A DNA stretch of 64,000 nucleotides, taken from an uncultured Candidatus Saccharibacteria bacterium. GTDB taxonomy: Bacteria > Patescibacteriota > Saccharimonadia > Saccharimonadales > Saccharimonadaceae. The notes beneath the pieces were generated by a model. It did no database searches. It was not told the DNA's origin and saw only the letters and a list, made by a program, of their open reading frames with translations. Made by a program: the position numbers and the translations under genes. The stretch lies in contig CAMCBN010000003.1 in assembly GCA_945873065.1 (NCBI GenBank), forward strand, positions 5,166-69,165, read 5' to 3'. Within the stretch, counting starts at the first letter, position 1. Every line of letters starts with the position of its first letter. Positions 35,980 to 41,174 of the stretch are shown here, piece by piece.

Positions 35980-36043
35980 ACAACAAGTATAACAAAGTCA
36001 CGAGAGGACGGCGAGAGAAGGTAGTGTGAGTTATACTGGAGGT

Positions 36044-39000
36044 ATGACTGATTTTTCTACTCGCTATTCGCACCTCAATACTCACCAGCGCCAAGCTGTA
36101 GATGACATCGATGGGCCGCTGCTTGTTATCGCTGGACCAGGCACTGGCAAGACTGAATTGCTGAGTATGCGCACCGCTAACATCCTCCGTCAGACTGATA
36201 CGCTACCCGAAAATATTCTCTGTCTTACTTTCACCGAAAGTGGTGCGATGGCTATGCGTCAACGGTTGCGTAGTATTATCGGAGCAGATGCTTACCGCGT
36301 AGCAATACATACTTTTCATAGTTTTGGTAGCGAAGTTATCAACCAATATCGCGAATATTTTTATCATGGCGCCCAAGTAGAGCCGATCGACGAGCTAGGT
36401 ACGTTAGCTATTTTAGATGATATCTTTCAACAACTCGATCATCGTAATCCACTCAGCAGTAAACAAGGCGAGAAATACACCTATCTGCGCGATACTAGCC
36501 GTAGCATTAGCGAACTCAAGCAGGCCGGTCTCAGCCGCAAAGAATTACTGCGCGTCATAGAGGCAGACGAAGCTTTGCTGGATGAAGTAGAGCCAGCTCT
36601 GACGGAGGTTTTCGCCAATCGCATCACTAAACAAATAGCCGGCAAGCTAGCCCCAATAGCCGGTCAGGCTGCACAGCTATCCTTGCCAAGCCTACCGCCA
36701 GCCATCCCGCCACTGGCTGATAGCTTTTCGCTCAGCCTAGCGCGAGCGATCGACGAGTCGCTAGCTAGCGACAAGACCACGCCGATCACCGCTTGGCGTA
36801 ATCATTGGCTTGAAAAAAACAACACTGGCGATTACATAATGAAGGACCGCAAGCGCCTAGCGAAGCTGCGCGCCCTTGCCGATATTTACCAATCTTACTT
36901 AGACATATTGACCGAAAATTGCCTAATCGATTACGATGATATGATCTTCGAGCTAGTCCAAGCTATGCAGTCTCAGCCCGAACTACGCTACAATTTACAA
37001 GAGCGCTATCAATACATCATGGTGGATGAGTTTCAAGACACTAATCTAGCTCAGTTACGCATCCTTTTCGCCCTGACTGATAATCCAGTCCATGAAGGCA
37101 AGCCAAATATAATGGCAGTCGGCGATGACGATCAAGCGATTTATAGTTTTCAAGGAGCCGATGTAGGTAATATTCATCGTTTCCGCCAGCAATATCGCCA
37201 AGTCAAACTGATAGCATTGACGGACAATTATCGCTCTAGCCCAGCGATCTTGGCGGCAGCTCGCTCGGTCATTACTCAGGGCAGTGACCGGCTCGAAGCG
37301 GTAGTAAACGAGCTAGATAAAACTCTATCGGCTCATCATATGCCCGAGTACAGCACGGTACAGCTACACCAGCTACCTAGCACTATCGCCGAACGACACT
37401 GGCTAGTTCAGCAAATTCGCCAACAAATTAGCAGTGGTATACCAGCTGAAGATATTGCTGTCATCGCCAGACGACACAGCGAGCTGACAGCGTTAGTGCC
37501 ATACCTACAGGCAGCGGACATCAAGGTCAACTACGAGCGACGCAATAATATCCTGGATCTACCGATCATTCGACTCATCGATCTCATCATGAGGCTACTT
37601 TGTGCCATCGCTGATGGTGATATAGGATTAGTCGACAGTTTATTGCCTCAATTGCTAGCCCAACCAGCCCTAGGTTTTGATAGCCAAGATGTCTGGAAAC
37701 TCAGCTTGCGAGCATGGCGCAATCATCAGAGTTGGACAGAGGCAATGATGGCGACAACTACCTTCCGTCCACTGATCATCTGGCTAATTGAGCTAGCTCA
37801 GCAATCACAAACTACGCCTTTCGAGCTCATCATTGACCGCATTATCGGTGCACCCGAACAGCCCACTGACGATGCGCACCAAGCAAACCAACCAGTTGAC
37901 AGTGAGCCATTGTATGTTTCACCTATTTACCAATATTATTTCTCGCCAGAGAAGATCCAGCAAAAACCCGACAGCTACATCACCCACTTAGAGGCATTGC
38001 GCACATTCCGCCAACACCTAGTCGACAACATTGGTAGCTGGTCGTTTTTTAGCCTACGTGAAGCATTAAGTTTTCTCGATATGCATTATGGATTCAATCT
38101 ACCGATCACCAGTATCCAGCTGCGAGCCGAGACCAACCGCGACCACATCAACCTAATGACCGCCCACAAAGCCAAAGGCTTAGAATTTCCACATGTTTAC
38201 ATCTGTGGTGCCACCGACAACGCCTGGGGGCGCACCGTACGATCACCGCAGCGTGTCATAAACTACCCCGATAACTTAACCATCGCGCCAGCAGGCTCTA
38301 GCTACGACGAACGCCTACGACTATTCTTCGTCGCCATGACTCGCGCCAAGGACACACTACATATTAGCTATAGTCAACAAAATGACGCTGGGCGAGCTAC
38401 TTTGCCAGCTAGTTTTCTTGAAGCGACAGAGCTATCAGCCGAGATAGTAGACAGCAATGATTCCATAGCCAGTATCAGCCAACAACTTACCACCGACTGG
38501 CGTGGACACTTCGCCGAATCAAATTCACCAGAGTTACGGCAACTACTCCAACCGCTACTTGAACAGTATAAATTATCCGCTACCGACCTAACCACCTTCC
38601 TCGACGTGGTCCACGGCGGGCCAACGACTTTTTTGGTCAATAATCTGCTACACTTTCCACGCGAGCGTAGCGCTTACGCTCTATACGGTACCACCATTCA
38701 CCACGTGTTACAGAGGGCACATTCACACCTTTCTGCCACCGGCAACACTCGCCCCACCGAGGACATATTGGGTGATTTTCAATACGAAATGCAACGACAG
38801 CCGCTTGATGATAATAAACGTGCTTATTTCACGAAGAAGGGGCTAGATTCACTCAGCGTCTTTTTGCAGCAACAAAGCGATACTTTTCGTCCCGATCAAA
38901 AAACCGAGCTATCCTTTGCGAGCCAGGGTGTTGTCTTGAGCGAAGTGCGGCTAACTGGTACACTCGACCTTGTTGACATTGACTCTAACAGAGGTACTAT

Positions 39001-39367
39001 CACTGTCACCGATTACAAAACCGGCCGCCCCGTCACATCCTGGCAGGGTCACGATGACTACACCAAATATAAGCTTCATCGTTATAAGCAACAGTTGATG
39101 TTCTACGAGCTGCTGGTACGTCATTCACGTGATTACACCCGTTACGAATTCACCGAAGCACGGCTACAATTTGTCGAACCCGACCAAGAAGGGCAAATTC
39201 ACCAGCTGACTGCACATTTCAGTGAAGCAGATCTAACCGAGTTTGCTCGATTACTCACCGTAGTATGGCGGCATATCATGGCATTAGATATGCCAGATAT
39301 CAGTGGTTATTCTGCAGACTATAAAGGTATGCAGGCCTTCGAACAAGACCTCATAAAAGAATACTAA
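36044..39367 (+). CDS. UvrD/PcrA-like helicase with C-terminal PD-(D/E)XK nuclease domain
   Basis: AGPGTGKT, LTFT, VDEFQD, VGDDDQAIYSFQGA, NYRS, TAHKAKGLEF, FVAMTRAK; C-terminal GTLDLVD...TDYKTG. Confidence 0.93.
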   Translation: MTDFSTRYSHLNTHQRQAVDDIDGPLLVIAGPGTGKTELLSMRTANILRQTDTLPENILCLTFTESGAMAMRQRLRSIIGADAYRVAIHTFHSFGSEVINQYREYFYHGAQVEPIDELGTLAILDDIFQQLDHRNPLSSKQGEKYTYLRDTSRSISELKQAGLSRKELLRVIEADEALLDEVEPALTEVFANRITKQIAGKLAPIAGQAAQLSLPSLPPAIPPLADSFSLSLARAIDESLASDKTTPITAWRNHWLEKNNTGDYIMKDRKRLAKLRALADIYQSYLDILTENCLIDYDDMIFELVQAMQSQPELRYNLQERYQYIMVDEFQDTNLAQLRILFALTDNPVHEGKPNIMAVGDDDQAIYSFQGADVGNIHRFRQQYRQVKLIALTDNYRSSPAILAAARSVITQGSDRLEAVVNELDKTLSAHHMPEYSTVQLHQLPSTIAERHWLVQQIRQQISSGIPAEDIAVIARRHSELTALVPYLQAADIKVNYERRNNILDLPIIRLIDLIMRLLCAIADGDIGLVDSLLPQLLAQPALGFDSQDVWKLSLRAWRNHQSWTEAMMATTTFRPLIIWLIELAQQSQTTPFELIIDRIIGAPEQPTDDAHQANQPVDSEPLYVSPIYQYYFSPEKIQQKPDSYITHLEALRTFRQHLVDNIGSWSFFSLREALSFLDMHYGFNLPITSIQLRAETNRDHINLMTAHKAKGLEFPHVYICGATDNAWGRTVRSPQRVINYPDNLTIAPAGSSYDERLRLFFVAMTRAKDTLHISYSQQNDAGRATLPASFLEATELSAEIVDSNDSIASISQQLTTDWRGHFAESNSPELRQLLQPLLEQYKLSATDLTTFLDVVHGGPTTFLVNNLLHFPRERSAYALYGTTIHHVLQRAHSHLSATGNTRPTEDILGDFQYEMQRQPLDDNKRAYFTKKGLDSLSVFLQQQSDTFRPDQKTELSFASQGVVLSEVRLTGTLDLVDIDSNRGTITVTDYKTGRPVTSWQGHDDYTKYKLHRYKQQLMFYELLVRHSRDYTRYEFTEARLQFVEPDQEGQIHQLTAHFSEADLTEFARLLTVVWRHIMALDMPDISGYSADYKGMQAFEQDLIKEY

Positions 39368-39395: not shown

Positions 39396-39427
39396 TTGAT
39401 TCTTTATTCGTATAGTGATATAAATAT
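39396..39427 (+). promoter_or_regulatory. Cassette-type promoter (TTGATT-N17-TATAAA, extended -10)
   Basis: TTGATT 39396-39401; TGATATAAATAT; resembles 15607 and 19524 promoters. Confidence 0.6.
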
Positions 39428-39586
39428 TAATAGCTCTATGAGCGGACTCTGACCTTGCGCCAGATGCGCGAGATCCCGGAAGCGCTCTGCACGAGAGCGT
39501 TTTTTGGAGAGGGATTCGCCGACAACCGCCGTCCGGGAGATTCCCGGTCGGCCGCCGCAACTCGCGGCAGAAAGGGGGTGATCCCC

Positions 39587-39739
39587 ATGAGTTGTAACCC
39601 ATGTACCCGCATGGGCTACTCGGGCACGAAGACGTGCCCTAGTTGTCGAGGGACGGGCAAAAAGTCCCTCGGGTACCGTTGCGATAACTGCAACGGTACT
39701 GGGCAGGTCTGCCTCCAGTGCGGAGGCAAAAATGCCTGA
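39587..39739 (+). CDS. 50-aa Cys-rich small protein with DnaJ-type zinc-finger repeats
   Basis: CNPC, CPSCRGTG, CDNCNGTG, CLQCGG; strong SD AAGGGGGTGAT 39572-39582. Confidence 0.8.
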   Translation: MSCNPCTRMGYSGTKTCPSCRGTGKKSLGYRCDNCNGTGQVCLQCGGKNA

Positions 39740-39860
39740 TTAAATTTTTTGACGGTGCGGGTCGTGCCCCCGCAACCCGCTGAGCCTCGAGCTCAGCAAC
39801 AGGGCGTCCGTCCGCCCCTGGTACGATTCGCCAGCTGGTTAAATCCGGAAAAGAATCACT

Positions 39861-39929
39861 GGGCGTGCATGGTGAAGGCAGAGTCCTAGAGACTCATAAG
39901 CCTCACGGGTTCGACTCCCGTCGCGTCCA
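39861..39929 (+). other. Degenerate tRNA-like element (Met/CAT-like loop, broken anticodon stem)
   Basis: Acceptor GGGCGTG/CGCGTCC + A; T-arm ACGGG-TTCGACT-CCCGT; CTCATAA loop present; only 69 nt, no encoded CCA. Confidence 0.7.
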
Positions 39930-40035
39930 CTGGAGATGGTGCAATGACGCATCGTCTTCTCAGGTGACTCGCGAGATTCACTCGTGAAAGTAACCCTACC
40001 AGGATACTCTCGAGCAGAGCCGCTTGAGTCACCAC

Positions 40036-40075
40036 CCCCCTACCTCAATGACGAGGTAGGGGGCTTTTCCTTTTT
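40036..40075 (+). terminator. Intrinsic terminator
   Basis: CCCCCTACCTC-aatgac-GAGGTAGGGGG followed by CTTTTCCTTTTT. Confidence 0.85.
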
Positions 40076-40097
40076 GTGCTACAATTAACTAACAGAT

Positions 40098-41174
40098 ATG
40101 AGTTCGTTTTGGAATGACCTGCCGCAGCCGTTTTTCGTCCTGGCGCCGATGGAGGCTGTCACTGATGTAGTGTTTCGCCAGGTTGTCAGGCGGGCAGGCG
40201 CACCGGATATCTTTTTCACGGAGTTTGCTAATGCTACTGGCTGGGTGCACGCTGGTGATAAGGCCATCGCTGGGCGGCTGATCAAAACCGACGATGAACA
40301 CCCGCTGGTGGCGCAAATTTGGGGTGGCGAGCCAGGCGATATGGAGCAATTTGCGCGCCACTGCCGAGAGCTTGGTTTTGATGGGATCGATATCAACATG
40401 GGTTGCCCGGCCAAAAGCGCTATCAAATCGGGCGGGGCGGCGCTTATCCGGAGGCCAGACGTCGCAGTGGCAGCAATTCGCGCCGCCAAAACCGCCGGGC
40501 TGCCAGTCAGCGTTAAAACACGTCTAGGTTACACGTATGCCGATGAATGGCGCGATTGGCTGCGGGTACTGCTCGAGCAAGACATCGTCAACTTAACGAT
40601 CCACCTGCGCACGAAAAGGGAGATGAGCAAGGTGCCGGCGCATTATGAACTCATCGACGAAATTGTCGCGCTGCGCGATGAAGTCGCACCCCAGACACTA
40701 CTGACTATCAACGGCGATATTCGCGACCGCGCGCACGGCCTGGAACTCGCCGCTCAGCACCCCGGCATAAACGGCATCATGATAGGCCGCGGCGTATTTC
40801 ATGATCCGTTTTGCTTTTCGAAATCTGCGAGCGGTATCGCTGAAAAAAATCTGGGCGCGAAGCCGGGACCCGGATTATTTTTCAGTGACACCCGAACAGA
40901 TAGAGAGCTGACGGGGCTTGATGCGCCCGTCACAGCCTCCTCGACAGAGGATATGTCCACTCCTCACAGAGCCGAACTCCTTGAACTGCTCCGCTATCAC
41001 CTCGACCTCTTTGATGAATACCAACCTGTTCTCGAACGCCCCTTCGAAACCCTGAAAAGATTTTTCAAAATCTACATCCGTGACTTCGATGGCGCTAAAG
41101 AGTTGCGCGATCAACTGATGCACACCAGGACAACTGACGAAGCGCGACACGTTTTGCGAAGCGGTAGGTTATAG
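40098..41174 (+). CDS. tRNA-dihydrouridine synthase (Dus family) with in-frame palindromic insertion
   Basis: LAPMEAVTD, FTEF, DINMGCP, VSVKTRLG, TIHLRT, INGDI, GIMIGRG. Confidence 0.93.
   Translation: MSSFWNDLPQPFFVLAPMEAVTDVVFRQVVRRAGAPDIFFTEFANATGWVHAGDKAIAGRLIKTDDEHPLVAQIWGGEPGDMEQFARHCRELGFDGIDINMGCPAKSAIKSGGAALIRRPDVAVAAIRAAKTAGLPVSVKTRLGYTYADEWRDWLRVLLEQDIVNLTIHLRTKREMSKVPAHYELIDEIVALRDEVAPQTLLTINGDIRDRAHGLELAAQHPGINGIMIGRGVFHDPFCFSKSASGIAEKNLGAKPGPGLFFSDTRTDRELTGLDAPVTASSTEDMSTPHRAELLELLRYHLDLFDEYQPVLERPFETLKRFFKIYIRDFDGAKELRDQLMHTRTTDEARHVLRSGRL
40833..40932 (+). repeat. In-frame palindromic element in dus (GCGAAGC apex)
   Basis: Imperfect long stem 40833-40855/40869-40892 with GCGAAGC 40857-40863 in the loop; second hairpin TGACGGG/CCCGTCA 40909-40932. 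Confidence 0.8.

Follow-up and report, generated by a model that had tools for sequence, protein, structure and literature searches.

What is encoded in the 730-nucleotide (nt) spacer between a helicase gene and dus in the genome of an uncultured Candidatus Saccharibacteria bacterium, and what could it do there? We examined this question in a stretch of 64,000 nt of that genome (hereafter the window; C3:5166-69165 of the 853-kb genome G000, which is 97% complete). The spacer is occupied by a unit at positions 39396-40075 of the forward strand, which the first-pass annotation, made from the letters of the window, had described as a single structured transcription unit with a microprotein gene and a long RNA tail. 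The unit is a single-copy, transcribed and conserved structured mRNA for a microprotein with a predicted zinc finger, and this RNA carries a tRNA-like element (hereafter the mimic) that does not decode. The individual parts of this RNA have known relatives. Fold z-scores, covariation and conservation in relatives show that the features of the unit exceed chance. The reading of its function that we favor, with a probability of roughly 0.45, is that of a long-lived message for a small protein, whose 3' end would be made and protected by the mimic together with two pseudoknots. Loci of relatives are referred to below by L-numbers and genomes by G-numbers.

Transcription and boundaries of the unit

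Transcription of the unit was detected in one animal-associated metatranscriptome (run X6), in which a 418-nt contig covers 39545-39943 at a depth of 9.25; this evidence consists of assembled contigs from a single sample, which carry no strand information and among which DNA carry-over is possible. In that sample the ATP synthase genes of the same organism have depths of 3-14, its transfer-messenger RNA (tmRNA) has a depth of 749, and the helicase gene and dus both have a depth of 0. Because the depth of the unit resembles that of the ATP synthase genes and lies far under that of tmRNA, its RNA level is that of a well-expressed mRNA and not that of a stable RNA. The contig comes from a near strain, which differs from the window by compensatory changes: C39805U with G39814A, which turn a C-G pair of helix P4 (see below) into U-A, and the deletion of both 39784 and 39792, which form one pair of helix P3. 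The contig ends at 39943, the first base of an AAUGAC hairpin loop, where it is fused to an Illumina adapter; this position, seen in a single contig, may be a natural RNA end or a cleavage site in the loop.

The promoter and the terminator that the first-pass annotation had placed at the two ends of the unit were both identified. The promoter, read from the sequence, lies at 39396-39424 (+) and consists of a -35 element TTGATT (39396-39401), a 17-nt spacer ending in TGa, and a -10 element TATAAA (39419-39424). TTGAC and the -10 element align among relatives. A consensus scanner missed this promoter for the sole reason that the sixth base of the -10 element is A. At the other end, a terminator scan located an intrinsic terminator (40036-40075, +) with a stem of 11 base pairs (bp) at 40036-40063, of which eight are G-C, a loop AAUGAC (40047-40052) and the U tract CUUUUCCUUU. 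The terminator stem covaries among relatives, and its loop is conserved as CAAUGRCG.

The 5' untranslated region, of 155 nt (about 39432-39586, +), was expected to contain at least four hairpins; we find four or five, and its predicted fold (-75.5 kcal/mol) is more stable than those of shuffled sequences (-60.8 +/- 4.1 kcal/mol; z = -3.55), none of 200 shuffles being equally stable. The leader hairpins are located at about 39454-39472, 39474-39508, 39528-39552 and 39554-39568 (+). The second of these, with the loop GCACG (39489-39493) and a U run after the hairpin, corresponds to the consensus helix of 11 relatives, in which four pairs are kept through two-sided changes. The leader is followed by a ribosome-binding site of 15 nt, AGAAAGGGGGUGAUC (39569-39583, +), previously noted as a near-perfect Shine-Dalgarno sequence and indeed found upstream of the open reading frame (ORF). 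This site is partly closed in a small GGGG/CCCC hairpin (39575-39586), which, judged by eye, shifts in step among relatives (GAGGU/ACCUC, GGGU/ACCC, GGGG/CCCC). A helix closing the leader onto the 3' part of the tail (AGCGGACUCUG with CAGAG-CCGCU) was also considered; it is good in the window, but relatives form only 4 bp, and it was dropped.

A conserved pseudoknotted scaffold

A structured tail of 336 nt (39740-40075, +) starts directly after the stop codon. The long folded tail with a tRNA-like part that had been described from the letters is borne out by a predicted fold of -148.4 kcal/mol, compared to -110.5 +/- 5.5 kcal/mol for shuffled sequences (z = -6.9; 0/100 shuffles as stable), and by the tRNA-like element at 39861-39929. 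The first portion of the tail can be drawn as two successive pseudoknots. In pseudoknot 1 (39748-39817, +), the P1 strand GACGG (39751-39755) pairs with CCGUC (39808-39812) in the loop of hairpin P4 (39802-39806 / 39813-39817), and two further hairpins, P2 (39757-39761 / 39769-39773) and P3 (39780-39785 / 39791-39796), are enclosed. In pseudoknot 2 (39818-39857, +), the loop GAUUC (39825-39829) of hairpin P5 (39818-39822 / 39830-39834) pairs with GAAUC (39853-39857), and hairpin P6 (39835-39838 / 39845-39848) lies between the two pairing strands.

We built a covariance model, R1, on the nested helices of this pseudoknot module; it scores 96.9 bits in the window and detects a single copy, never more, in each of 25 genomes out of 105 from the genus. 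Among 22 distinct sequences, 96% of the cells of helices P2-P6 are paired and 16 of the 31 pairs change on both sides, a level reached by none of 500 shuffles and by no slid control. P5 and P6 are among the covarying helices. P1 is almost invariant, with A-U replaced by G-U in two sequences, so that this helix is proposed from complementarity. The loop pairing of pseudoknot 2, read by eye, is GAUUC/GAAUC in most relatives and GGUUC/GAAUC in L021, while L019 has a compensating 10-nt pairing, GCGAUUUCUU/AAGAAAUCGC, likewise seen by eye.

Downstream of the mimic lies a first 11-bp hairpin (39932-39959, +) with the loop AAUGAC at 39943-39948, the same loop as that of the terminator. A scan of the whole genome for AAUGRC loops on hairpins of 6 bp or more returned only four, and both of the 11-bp ones are in this unit. 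The two flank a multi-branched (three-way) 3' module (39963-40033, +), closed by the helix GGUGACUCG (39963-39971) / UGAGUCACC (40025-40033) and containing the hairpin CGAG-AUUCA-CUCG (39972-39984), a variable hairpin and the nearly invariant GAGCAGARCCGCU (40012-40024). RNAalifold predicted 25 pairs from 18 relatives for the module and the terminator together; 14 of these persist despite two-sided changes. The 3' module is also present in divergent scaffolds with two mimics (L011, L167-L171). Compensatory changes support most helices of the tail, and on this comparative evidence its scaffold is maintained by selection.

The tRNA-like element

The mimic spans 69 nt (39861-39929, +). Its 7-bp acceptor stem (39861-39867 / 39922-39928; GGGCGUG/CGCGUCC) includes G3-U70 (G39863-U39926) and U6-G67 and is followed by a discriminator A39929 and then by CUG instead of CCA. 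The T arm (39905-39921; ACGGG-UUCGACU-CCCGU) is canonical, with a loop of the UUCRAnY type. The D arm is absent, just 6 nt (CAUGGU) being found in its place, and the remaining arm (39874-39904) is long and irregular, with a 5-nt loop and without an intact anticodon stem. Neither ARAGORN nor the Rfam tRNA model (RF00005) makes a call at 39861-39929. The Rfam scan that the first-pass annotation had suggested as a check returned a sole, sub-threshold match, that of the tmRNA model (RF00023) to the tRNA-like ends (26 bits, E = 1.8e-8; gathering score 47), and nothing beyond it at a permissive threshold. A canonical tmRNA is encoded elsewhere in the genome (C1:55939-56342, 80.4 bits). By its sequence the element belongs to neither the tRNAs nor the tmRNAs. 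No other unannotated fold of an acceptor stem plus a T arm in the whole genome is convincing, and the mimic always begins 3 nt past the pseudoknot-2 strand GAAUC.

Charging of the mimic in this genome appears unlikely because the mimic has no CCA, because CCA is encoded in 42 of the 43 predicted tRNA genes, and because no gene for a CCA-adding enzyme (PF01743) was detected in the genome, of which 3% is missing; control genomes were positive in the same search. As an observation on the organism itself, the presence of CCA in all genuine tRNA genes of a genome where PF01743 was not found suggests that it cannot repair or add CCA ends.

These features bear on the possibility that the unit is a miniature second tmRNA, or a mimic charged by alanyl-tRNA synthetase through G3-U70, acting on ribosomes or donating alanine. 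G3-U70 and the discriminator A73 are present in the window and in alpha-type relatives, the Rfam tmRNA model fits both ends, and the order of ORF, pseudoknots and tRNA-like domain recalls tmRNA. However, the end A-CUG and the missing enzyme argue against charging, G3-U70 is not kept among relatives (G3-C70 in beta and gamma types, A3-U70 in L011), the genome already has its canonical tmRNA, and the ORF possesses its own ribosome-binding site and start codon. We disfavour this explanation and consider it very improbable.

The locus provides 33 distinct versions of the acceptor and T arm, all of them paired (the scan that collected them required pairing), and 32 of the 33 keep C74, although CCA itself is not kept. 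The long arm of the mimic shares stretches with genuine tRNAs. In the window, 39891-39903 (GACUCAUAAGCCU) is identical over 13 nt to the anticodon loop and 3' stem of the genome's tRNA-Met(CAU), and in relatives the same place holds 14 nt of tRNA-Ala(UGC) or 12 nt of tRNA-Trp(CCA); none of 300 shuffles reached any of these matches. The Ala- and Trp-copying mimics sit on nearly unchanged acceptor and T stems. We looked for antisense pairing of the mimic arm with the downstream RNA and obtained duplex energies no better than those of shuffles (z from -2.4 to +1.5).

Stretches shared with tRNAs would also be expected if an ordinary small gene simply lay beside a decaying tRNA gene, the structure being its remains, and a distant clade of the genus does have a canonical cloverleaf at the same spot (L176). 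Against such decay, the 33 variants keep both the acceptor and the T stem completely paired by way of many compensatory changes, there is covariation in the pseudoknots and the 3' module on either side, the region is transcribed, and 730-1650 nt are retained in every close relative of a 0.85-Mb genome with very short spacers. Decay is in our estimation an improbable explanation.

Some further observations concern the tRNA complement. ARAGORN predicts 43 tRNA genes in the whole genome, among which tRNA-His and tRNA-Arg(UCU) were not found. A scan for acceptor-plus-T-arm folds gave no candidate for the missing tRNAs besides the mimic, and their genes may lie in the unassembled 3%. One ARAGORN call, tRNA-Arg(tcg) at C1:165442-165525, overlaps a tRNA-Ser(tga) on the opposite strand, has no CCA and is probably false.

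The microprotein

The 50-residue ORF that the first-pass annotation had read from the sequence is present at 39587-39739 (+). Its product, MSCNPC...CGGKNA, has four CxxC pairs (CNPC, CPSCRGTG, CDNCNGTG and CLQCGG), which comprise two full CxxCxGxG motifs, one CxxCGG and one CxxCxxxG. A search of 5.8 billion proteins returned two near homologues, with amino-acid identities of 86-90%. For the homologue at L021, the contig shows the same order of helicase gene, unit and dus. The two ORFs differ at 40 of 153 bases, with 26 of the 40 differences at third positions (proportions of nonsynonymous and synonymous differences, pN and pS, 0.12 and 0.74; ratio of nonsynonymous to synonymous substitution rates, dN/dS, about 0.04). 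Because most differences from L021 fall on third positions, we conclude from the sequence comparison that the ORF is a real gene under purifying selection. Conserved downstream structure with covariation is likewise present where the ORF (L021, L167) or the locus has homologues; the first-pass annotation had named the absence of such structure as grounds for refutation, and these loci do not refute it.

The assignment to a DnaJ-type zinc finger made in the first-pass annotation stands in part. A profile of seven cysteine-rich ORFs from the locus in different genomes matches the DnaJ Cys-rich domain 1EXK (E = 8.1e-6) and 6JZB (E = 2.5e-4), with a weak match to anti-TRAP 3LCZ (E = 0.29). The window protein taken alone reaches 14.5 bits with the Pfam family DnaJ_CXXCXGXG (PF00684; E = 0.044), which is below the cut-off of 32.7, and its AlphaFold2 model, computed from a 3-row alignment, has a mean predicted local distance difference test (pLDDT) score of 44.6 and is unusable. 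The gene is real and the locus profile matches; because the single protein is below the Pfam cut-off and the model is unusable, a DnaJ-type double zinc finger with two zinc centres is backed by sequence profile and not by structure. The anti-TRAP family PF15777 is matched by one of the seven locus ORFs (E = 0.0087), which is not the ORF of the window; the window protein fails the family match.

The locus in relatives

The upstream neighbour of the unit is a UvrD-type helicase/nuclease gene encoding 1113 amino acids (36026-39367), and the downstream neighbour is dus (40098-41174). The relative Candidatus Nanosynbacter sp. TM7-053 has a unit corresponding to 39396-40075 in identical synteny, and because of this match in unit and synteny the source genome is probably a member of Nanosynbacter. 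The 16-mer GRGCGTCCGTCCGCYC, scanned over genome contigs, gave 119 matches, of which one, in Nanosynbacter sp. TM7-053, was real; the probe was too unspecific.

The order helicase gene, spacer, dus is found throughout the genus and in most sampled genera of the family. Within the genus the spacer measures between 363 and more than 1,500 nt (0.4-1.6 kb), with 730-1,650 nt in the relatives closest to the window. Nearly all of these spacers have a small ORF behind a strong ribosome-binding site, or tRNA-like elements (one or several), or the two together. Outside the genus, spacer lengths run from 5 nt, where the unit is absent, to about 1,400 nt. The mimics found there have a canonical acceptor stem, D arm and T arm, and in place of a normal anticodon arm they have either a tetraloop hairpin or a long insertion.

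The small ORF is far more variable than the RNA that surrounds it. Its commonest type encodes a hydrophilic protein of 57-63 residues (GFFxDRS..AAYRRAAEAVQ..) with a dN/dS of 0.14, and other occupants of the slot are zinc fingers related to or unlike that of the window, zinc ribbons and unrelated peptides; the small proteins of the locus are all basic. The commonest alternative ORF had six matches among the 5.8 billion proteins and none in 301 genomes of the order beyond the genus, a set without a positive control that therefore shows little. The ORF is, by these comparisons, a swappable occupant of a conserved RNA scaffold; like the two pseudoknots and the missing CCA of the mimic, this had escaped the first-pass annotation. 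Segment-wise identities form mosaics. L146 and L153 are 99-100% identical in leader and ORF, with ORFs 100% identical, and only 62% identical in the mimic arm; L146 and L147 are 97-100% identical from the mimic through dus and 56-62% identical in the ORF, the leader and the 3' end of the helicase gene. From these mosaics, lineages seem to swap the ORF by homologous recombination that breaks within the conserved pseudoknot module, and not by transposition of a cassette.

The replacement of the ORF between close relatives is also what a mobile element or phage remnant might produce, and a compact mobile remnant had been one suggestion of the first-pass annotation. There are weak Pfam similarities of the ORF to phage mini-proteins (E = 0.01-0.06), and one IMG/VR contig bears the pseudoknot module. 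The evidence nevertheless runs the other way. The unit is present once per genome in a constant place, fixed between the helicase gene and dus, and has no repeats, integrase or transposase. The replacements fit homologous recombination, in which the 3' end of the helicase gene is carried along with the ORF. A 17-mer search of IMG/VR gave 13 matches, 12 of them by chance; the only true one (L224, IMGVR_UViG_3300014026_000189) is a 33-kb contig filed as viral, in which the unit adjoins dus as in chromosomes, and it is probably a fragment of a Saccharibacteria chromosome, possibly with a prophage elsewhere on the contig. In a phage collection the search yielded just a 23-residue match to the CxxCxGxG motif, in two unannotated giant-phage records. 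We disfavour a mobile or phage origin, which seems to us exceedingly improbable.

The first-pass annotation had also noted that the unit lies immediately before dus; a functional tie between the two is not supported. Just past the terminator, all relatives conserve the motif TTGTGaTAaAAT, and the dus promoter, an extended -10 element TGTGcTACAAT (40076-40085, +), lies just outside the unit, upstream of the dus start at 40098. If the unit were a cis-regulatory leader of dus, Dus would bind the mimic and control read-through of the terminator. The D arm is the substrate of Dus, the mimic of other genera keeps a canonical D arm, and dus lies directly downstream in every genome examined. In the window, however, the mimic lacks a D arm, and dus has a conserved promoter of its own behind a strong terminator; no dus RNA was present in the sample that showed the unit, and in some genera the helicase gene and dus are just 5-38 nt apart with no unit between them. 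There is very little probability in a leader function.

Several features of related loci are recorded here in their own right. The 3' end of the helicase gene (window 38900-39367) exists in deeply divergent alleles (56% versus 88% nucleotide identity), which travel with the type of small ORF; dus on the opposite side can be 100% identical, and the junction lies inside the unit. A sister scaffold (L011, L018, L167-L171) has an additional promoter as well as an additional mimic of larger size. The acceptor stem of this mimic has 8 bp, its long arm is capped by AAUGGC as on the terminators, and the Rfam tRNA-Sec model matches the element at 35 bits (cut-off 47). In L176 (G014, spacer 521-794), three tandem tRNA-like genes precede dus. 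ARAGORN labels the last of them, a canonical cloverleaf, as tRNA-Pyl(CUA); with a perfectly paired anticodon stem it reads as tRNA-Arg(UCU). The distant clade of the genus has odd tRNA-Gly- and tRNA-Cys-like genes at the same spot. In two loci of a distant clade of the genus there is a tandem 8-nt repeat, AACTTAGA, with about nine copies in L179 (spacer 541-618), just upstream of the dus promoter, and also in L178 (spacer about 1060-1085).

A proposed role for the mimic and the pseudoknots

In the reading that we favor, the mimic would serve as a handle for the tRNA-maturation machinery, with no decoding and no charging in this genome. The genome encodes a type-A ribonuclease P (RNase P) RNA (C1:59267-59638, 268 bits); RNase P of this type would recognise the acceptor/T-arm unit and C74 and would cut between 39860 and 39861, before G39861. 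We propose RNase P because its type-A RNA is present, because C74 is kept in the mimic without CCA, and because the mimic lies 3 nt past GAAUC. The new end of the message, ...GAAUCACU, would then be locked in pseudoknot 2, stacked behind pseudoknot 1 and hidden from 3'-exonucleases, while the very long ribosome-binding site would hold the ribosome at the 5' side. The outcome would be a stable and strongly translated small-protein message in a cell with very few regulators, and the freed mimic with the 3' module may have a further role of its own.

A number of observations weigh against this proposal. Processing at 39860/39861 is part of a mechanism that we infer, and the RNA contig runs unbroken across both borders of the mimic (39860/61 and 39929/30), so that some or all of the RNA stays uncut, or else DNA has entered the contig. 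Covariation cannot confirm P1, which is nearly invariant, and pseudoknot 2 was judged by eye. In seven of the 25 genomes with the pseudoknot module, the fold that takes the place of the mimic does not resemble a tRNA (L158, L160-L165), and in other genera (L184, L189) the mimic lies upstream of the small ORF and so has no general 3'-end role there. Finally, identities of 12-14 nt with anticodon hairpins would be needless in a plain processing signal; they hint at a role for the mimic itself.

This hint leads to the strongest alternative, in which the mimic is the main product: a non-chargeable tRNA decoy, released or embedded, possibly bound by the co-encoded small basic protein, with the ORF as partner or passenger. 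Its targets could be a tRNA site of the ribosome, a modification enzyme, or an anticodon nuclease of host, competitor or phage. Small ORF and mimic co-occur at the locus across the family in either order. The copies of anticodon loop and 3' stem from Met, Ala(UGC) and Trp(CCA) tRNAs speak for a decoy, and arms that vary between near-identical scaffolds, as in L146 and L153, show the turnover expected under conflict. Hairpins capped by AAUGRC recur, once in the arm of the second mimic (L011), and resemble a repeated, putative binding site; the basic nature of all small proteins of the locus fits as well. On the other hand, the RNA level is that of an mRNA, about 80 times under tmRNA in the one sample, the contig is continuous over the mimic borders, the arm in the window has a 5-nt loop and no intact anticodon stem, binding by the small protein, which the first-pass annotation had considered for the finger and the downstream RNA, is putative, and some lineages have no tRNA-like fold at this place. 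The anticodon copies, the strain turnover and the AAUGRC loops fit a decoy better than they fit a processed message, and the abundance and the uncut contig fit it worse. We consider the decoy possible, if rather unlikely.

A broader version, which we hold to be doubtful, is that of a new RNA-protein module: a non-chargeable mimic that keeps the tRNA elbow, set in a pseudoknotted scaffold and combined with an interchangeable small basic protein, whose arm is reshuffled by recombination as that of a decoy in an arms race. In such a module the small protein, of the zinc-finger or the hydrophilic helix type, might complete or guard the mimic in the manner of SmpB, which completes the tRNA-like domain of tmRNA. 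Conceivable opponents of the decoy are toxins of hosts, competitors or phages that cut tRNA, or a factor that senses tRNA. The decaying tRNA gene, the miniature tmRNA, the dus leader and the mobile remnant each fail at least one test. A substitute for ribosome hibernation factors was also considered and rejected, the genome having an HPF/RaiA homologue.

Comparison with known systems

The unit can be compared with several known RNAs. It shares with tmRNA (RF00023) a tRNA-like domain without an anticodon, an acceptor stem with G3-U70, and a short ORF that is separated from the T arm by pseudoknots. Unlike in tmRNA, just 54 nt separate the two acceptor strands, which close into a mini-tRNA, with the ORF and the pseudoknots upstream and not enclosed; the ORF, with a separate ribosome-binding site and an ATG, codes for a predicted folded zinc protein instead of a degradation tag; and the mimic, without CCA, scores 26 bits against 47 in a genome that has a normal tmRNA elsewhere.

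The RNAs of plant viruses such as turnip yellow mosaic virus (TYMV) and tobacco mosaic virus (TMV) end in tRNA-like structures that have an upstream pseudoknot domain and a CC(A) end, are aminoacylated, and serve replication and translation. The order of coding RNA, pseudoknots and a tRNA mimic seen by the tRNA machinery is similar here, but the mimic of the unit is internal, has no CCA, belongs to a bacterial, DNA-encoded RNA and has about 140 nt of further structure behind it. In the eukaryotic non-coding RNAs MALAT1, with its mascRNA, and MEN-beta, RNase P makes the 3' end and a triple helix protects it, a strategy thus documented for a human long non-coding RNA. The route that we propose is the same (a downstream tRNA-like element, RNase P and a hidden new end), although the unit codes for a protein, would use a pseudoknot in place of a triple helix, and has a cleavage that is predicted.

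On the protein side, the DnaJ Cys-rich domain (PF00684; 1EXK) has four CxxC pairs with the CxxCxGxG spacing that is seen in the protein of the unit, which differs from DnaJ in having no J domain and no client-binding domains. Anti-TRAP RtpA (PF15777; 3LCZ) is a stand-alone zinc protein of about 53 residues and of similar type; around the unit we noted no context of TRAP or of a trp regulon. Dual-function structured RNAs that encode a small protein, the kind that the first-pass annotation had put forward here, include RNAIII (hld) and SgrS (sgrT), and the unit resembles them as a hairpin-rich RNA of about 0.5-0.65 kb with a small protein. It differs from them in that its tail consists of a mimic and pseudoknots and not of C-rich or seed hairpins, and in that its ORF varies among relatives while the RNA stays.

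Implications for Saccharibacteria

In the literature searched we found no description of a small-protein mRNA unit with pseudoknots and a tRNA mimic of this sort, and no paper that joins Saccharibacteria or Patescibacteria with 'tRNA-like' RNAs; a preprint on the TM7x transcriptome does not mention the locus. Genomes of Saccharibacteria measure about 0.8 Mb and have almost no spare DNA and few regulators, yet every examined relative in the genus sets aside 0.4-1.6 kb for this folded RNA, with housekeeping genes on both sides. The locus also points to a family of unannotated microproteins which gene callers mostly miss, and it brings together, in a compact natural form, several modules that are accessible to direct tests in vitro, namely a long ribosome-binding site, two pseudoknots and a putative minimal RNase P handle. 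If the mimic acts alone, it would represent a new class of tRNA decoys in obligate epibionts of medical interest in the mouth and gut. If the proposed mechanism is true, a tRNA mimic and pseudoknots would define and protect the 3' end of an mRNA in a bacterium, for which we know of no earlier bacterial case.

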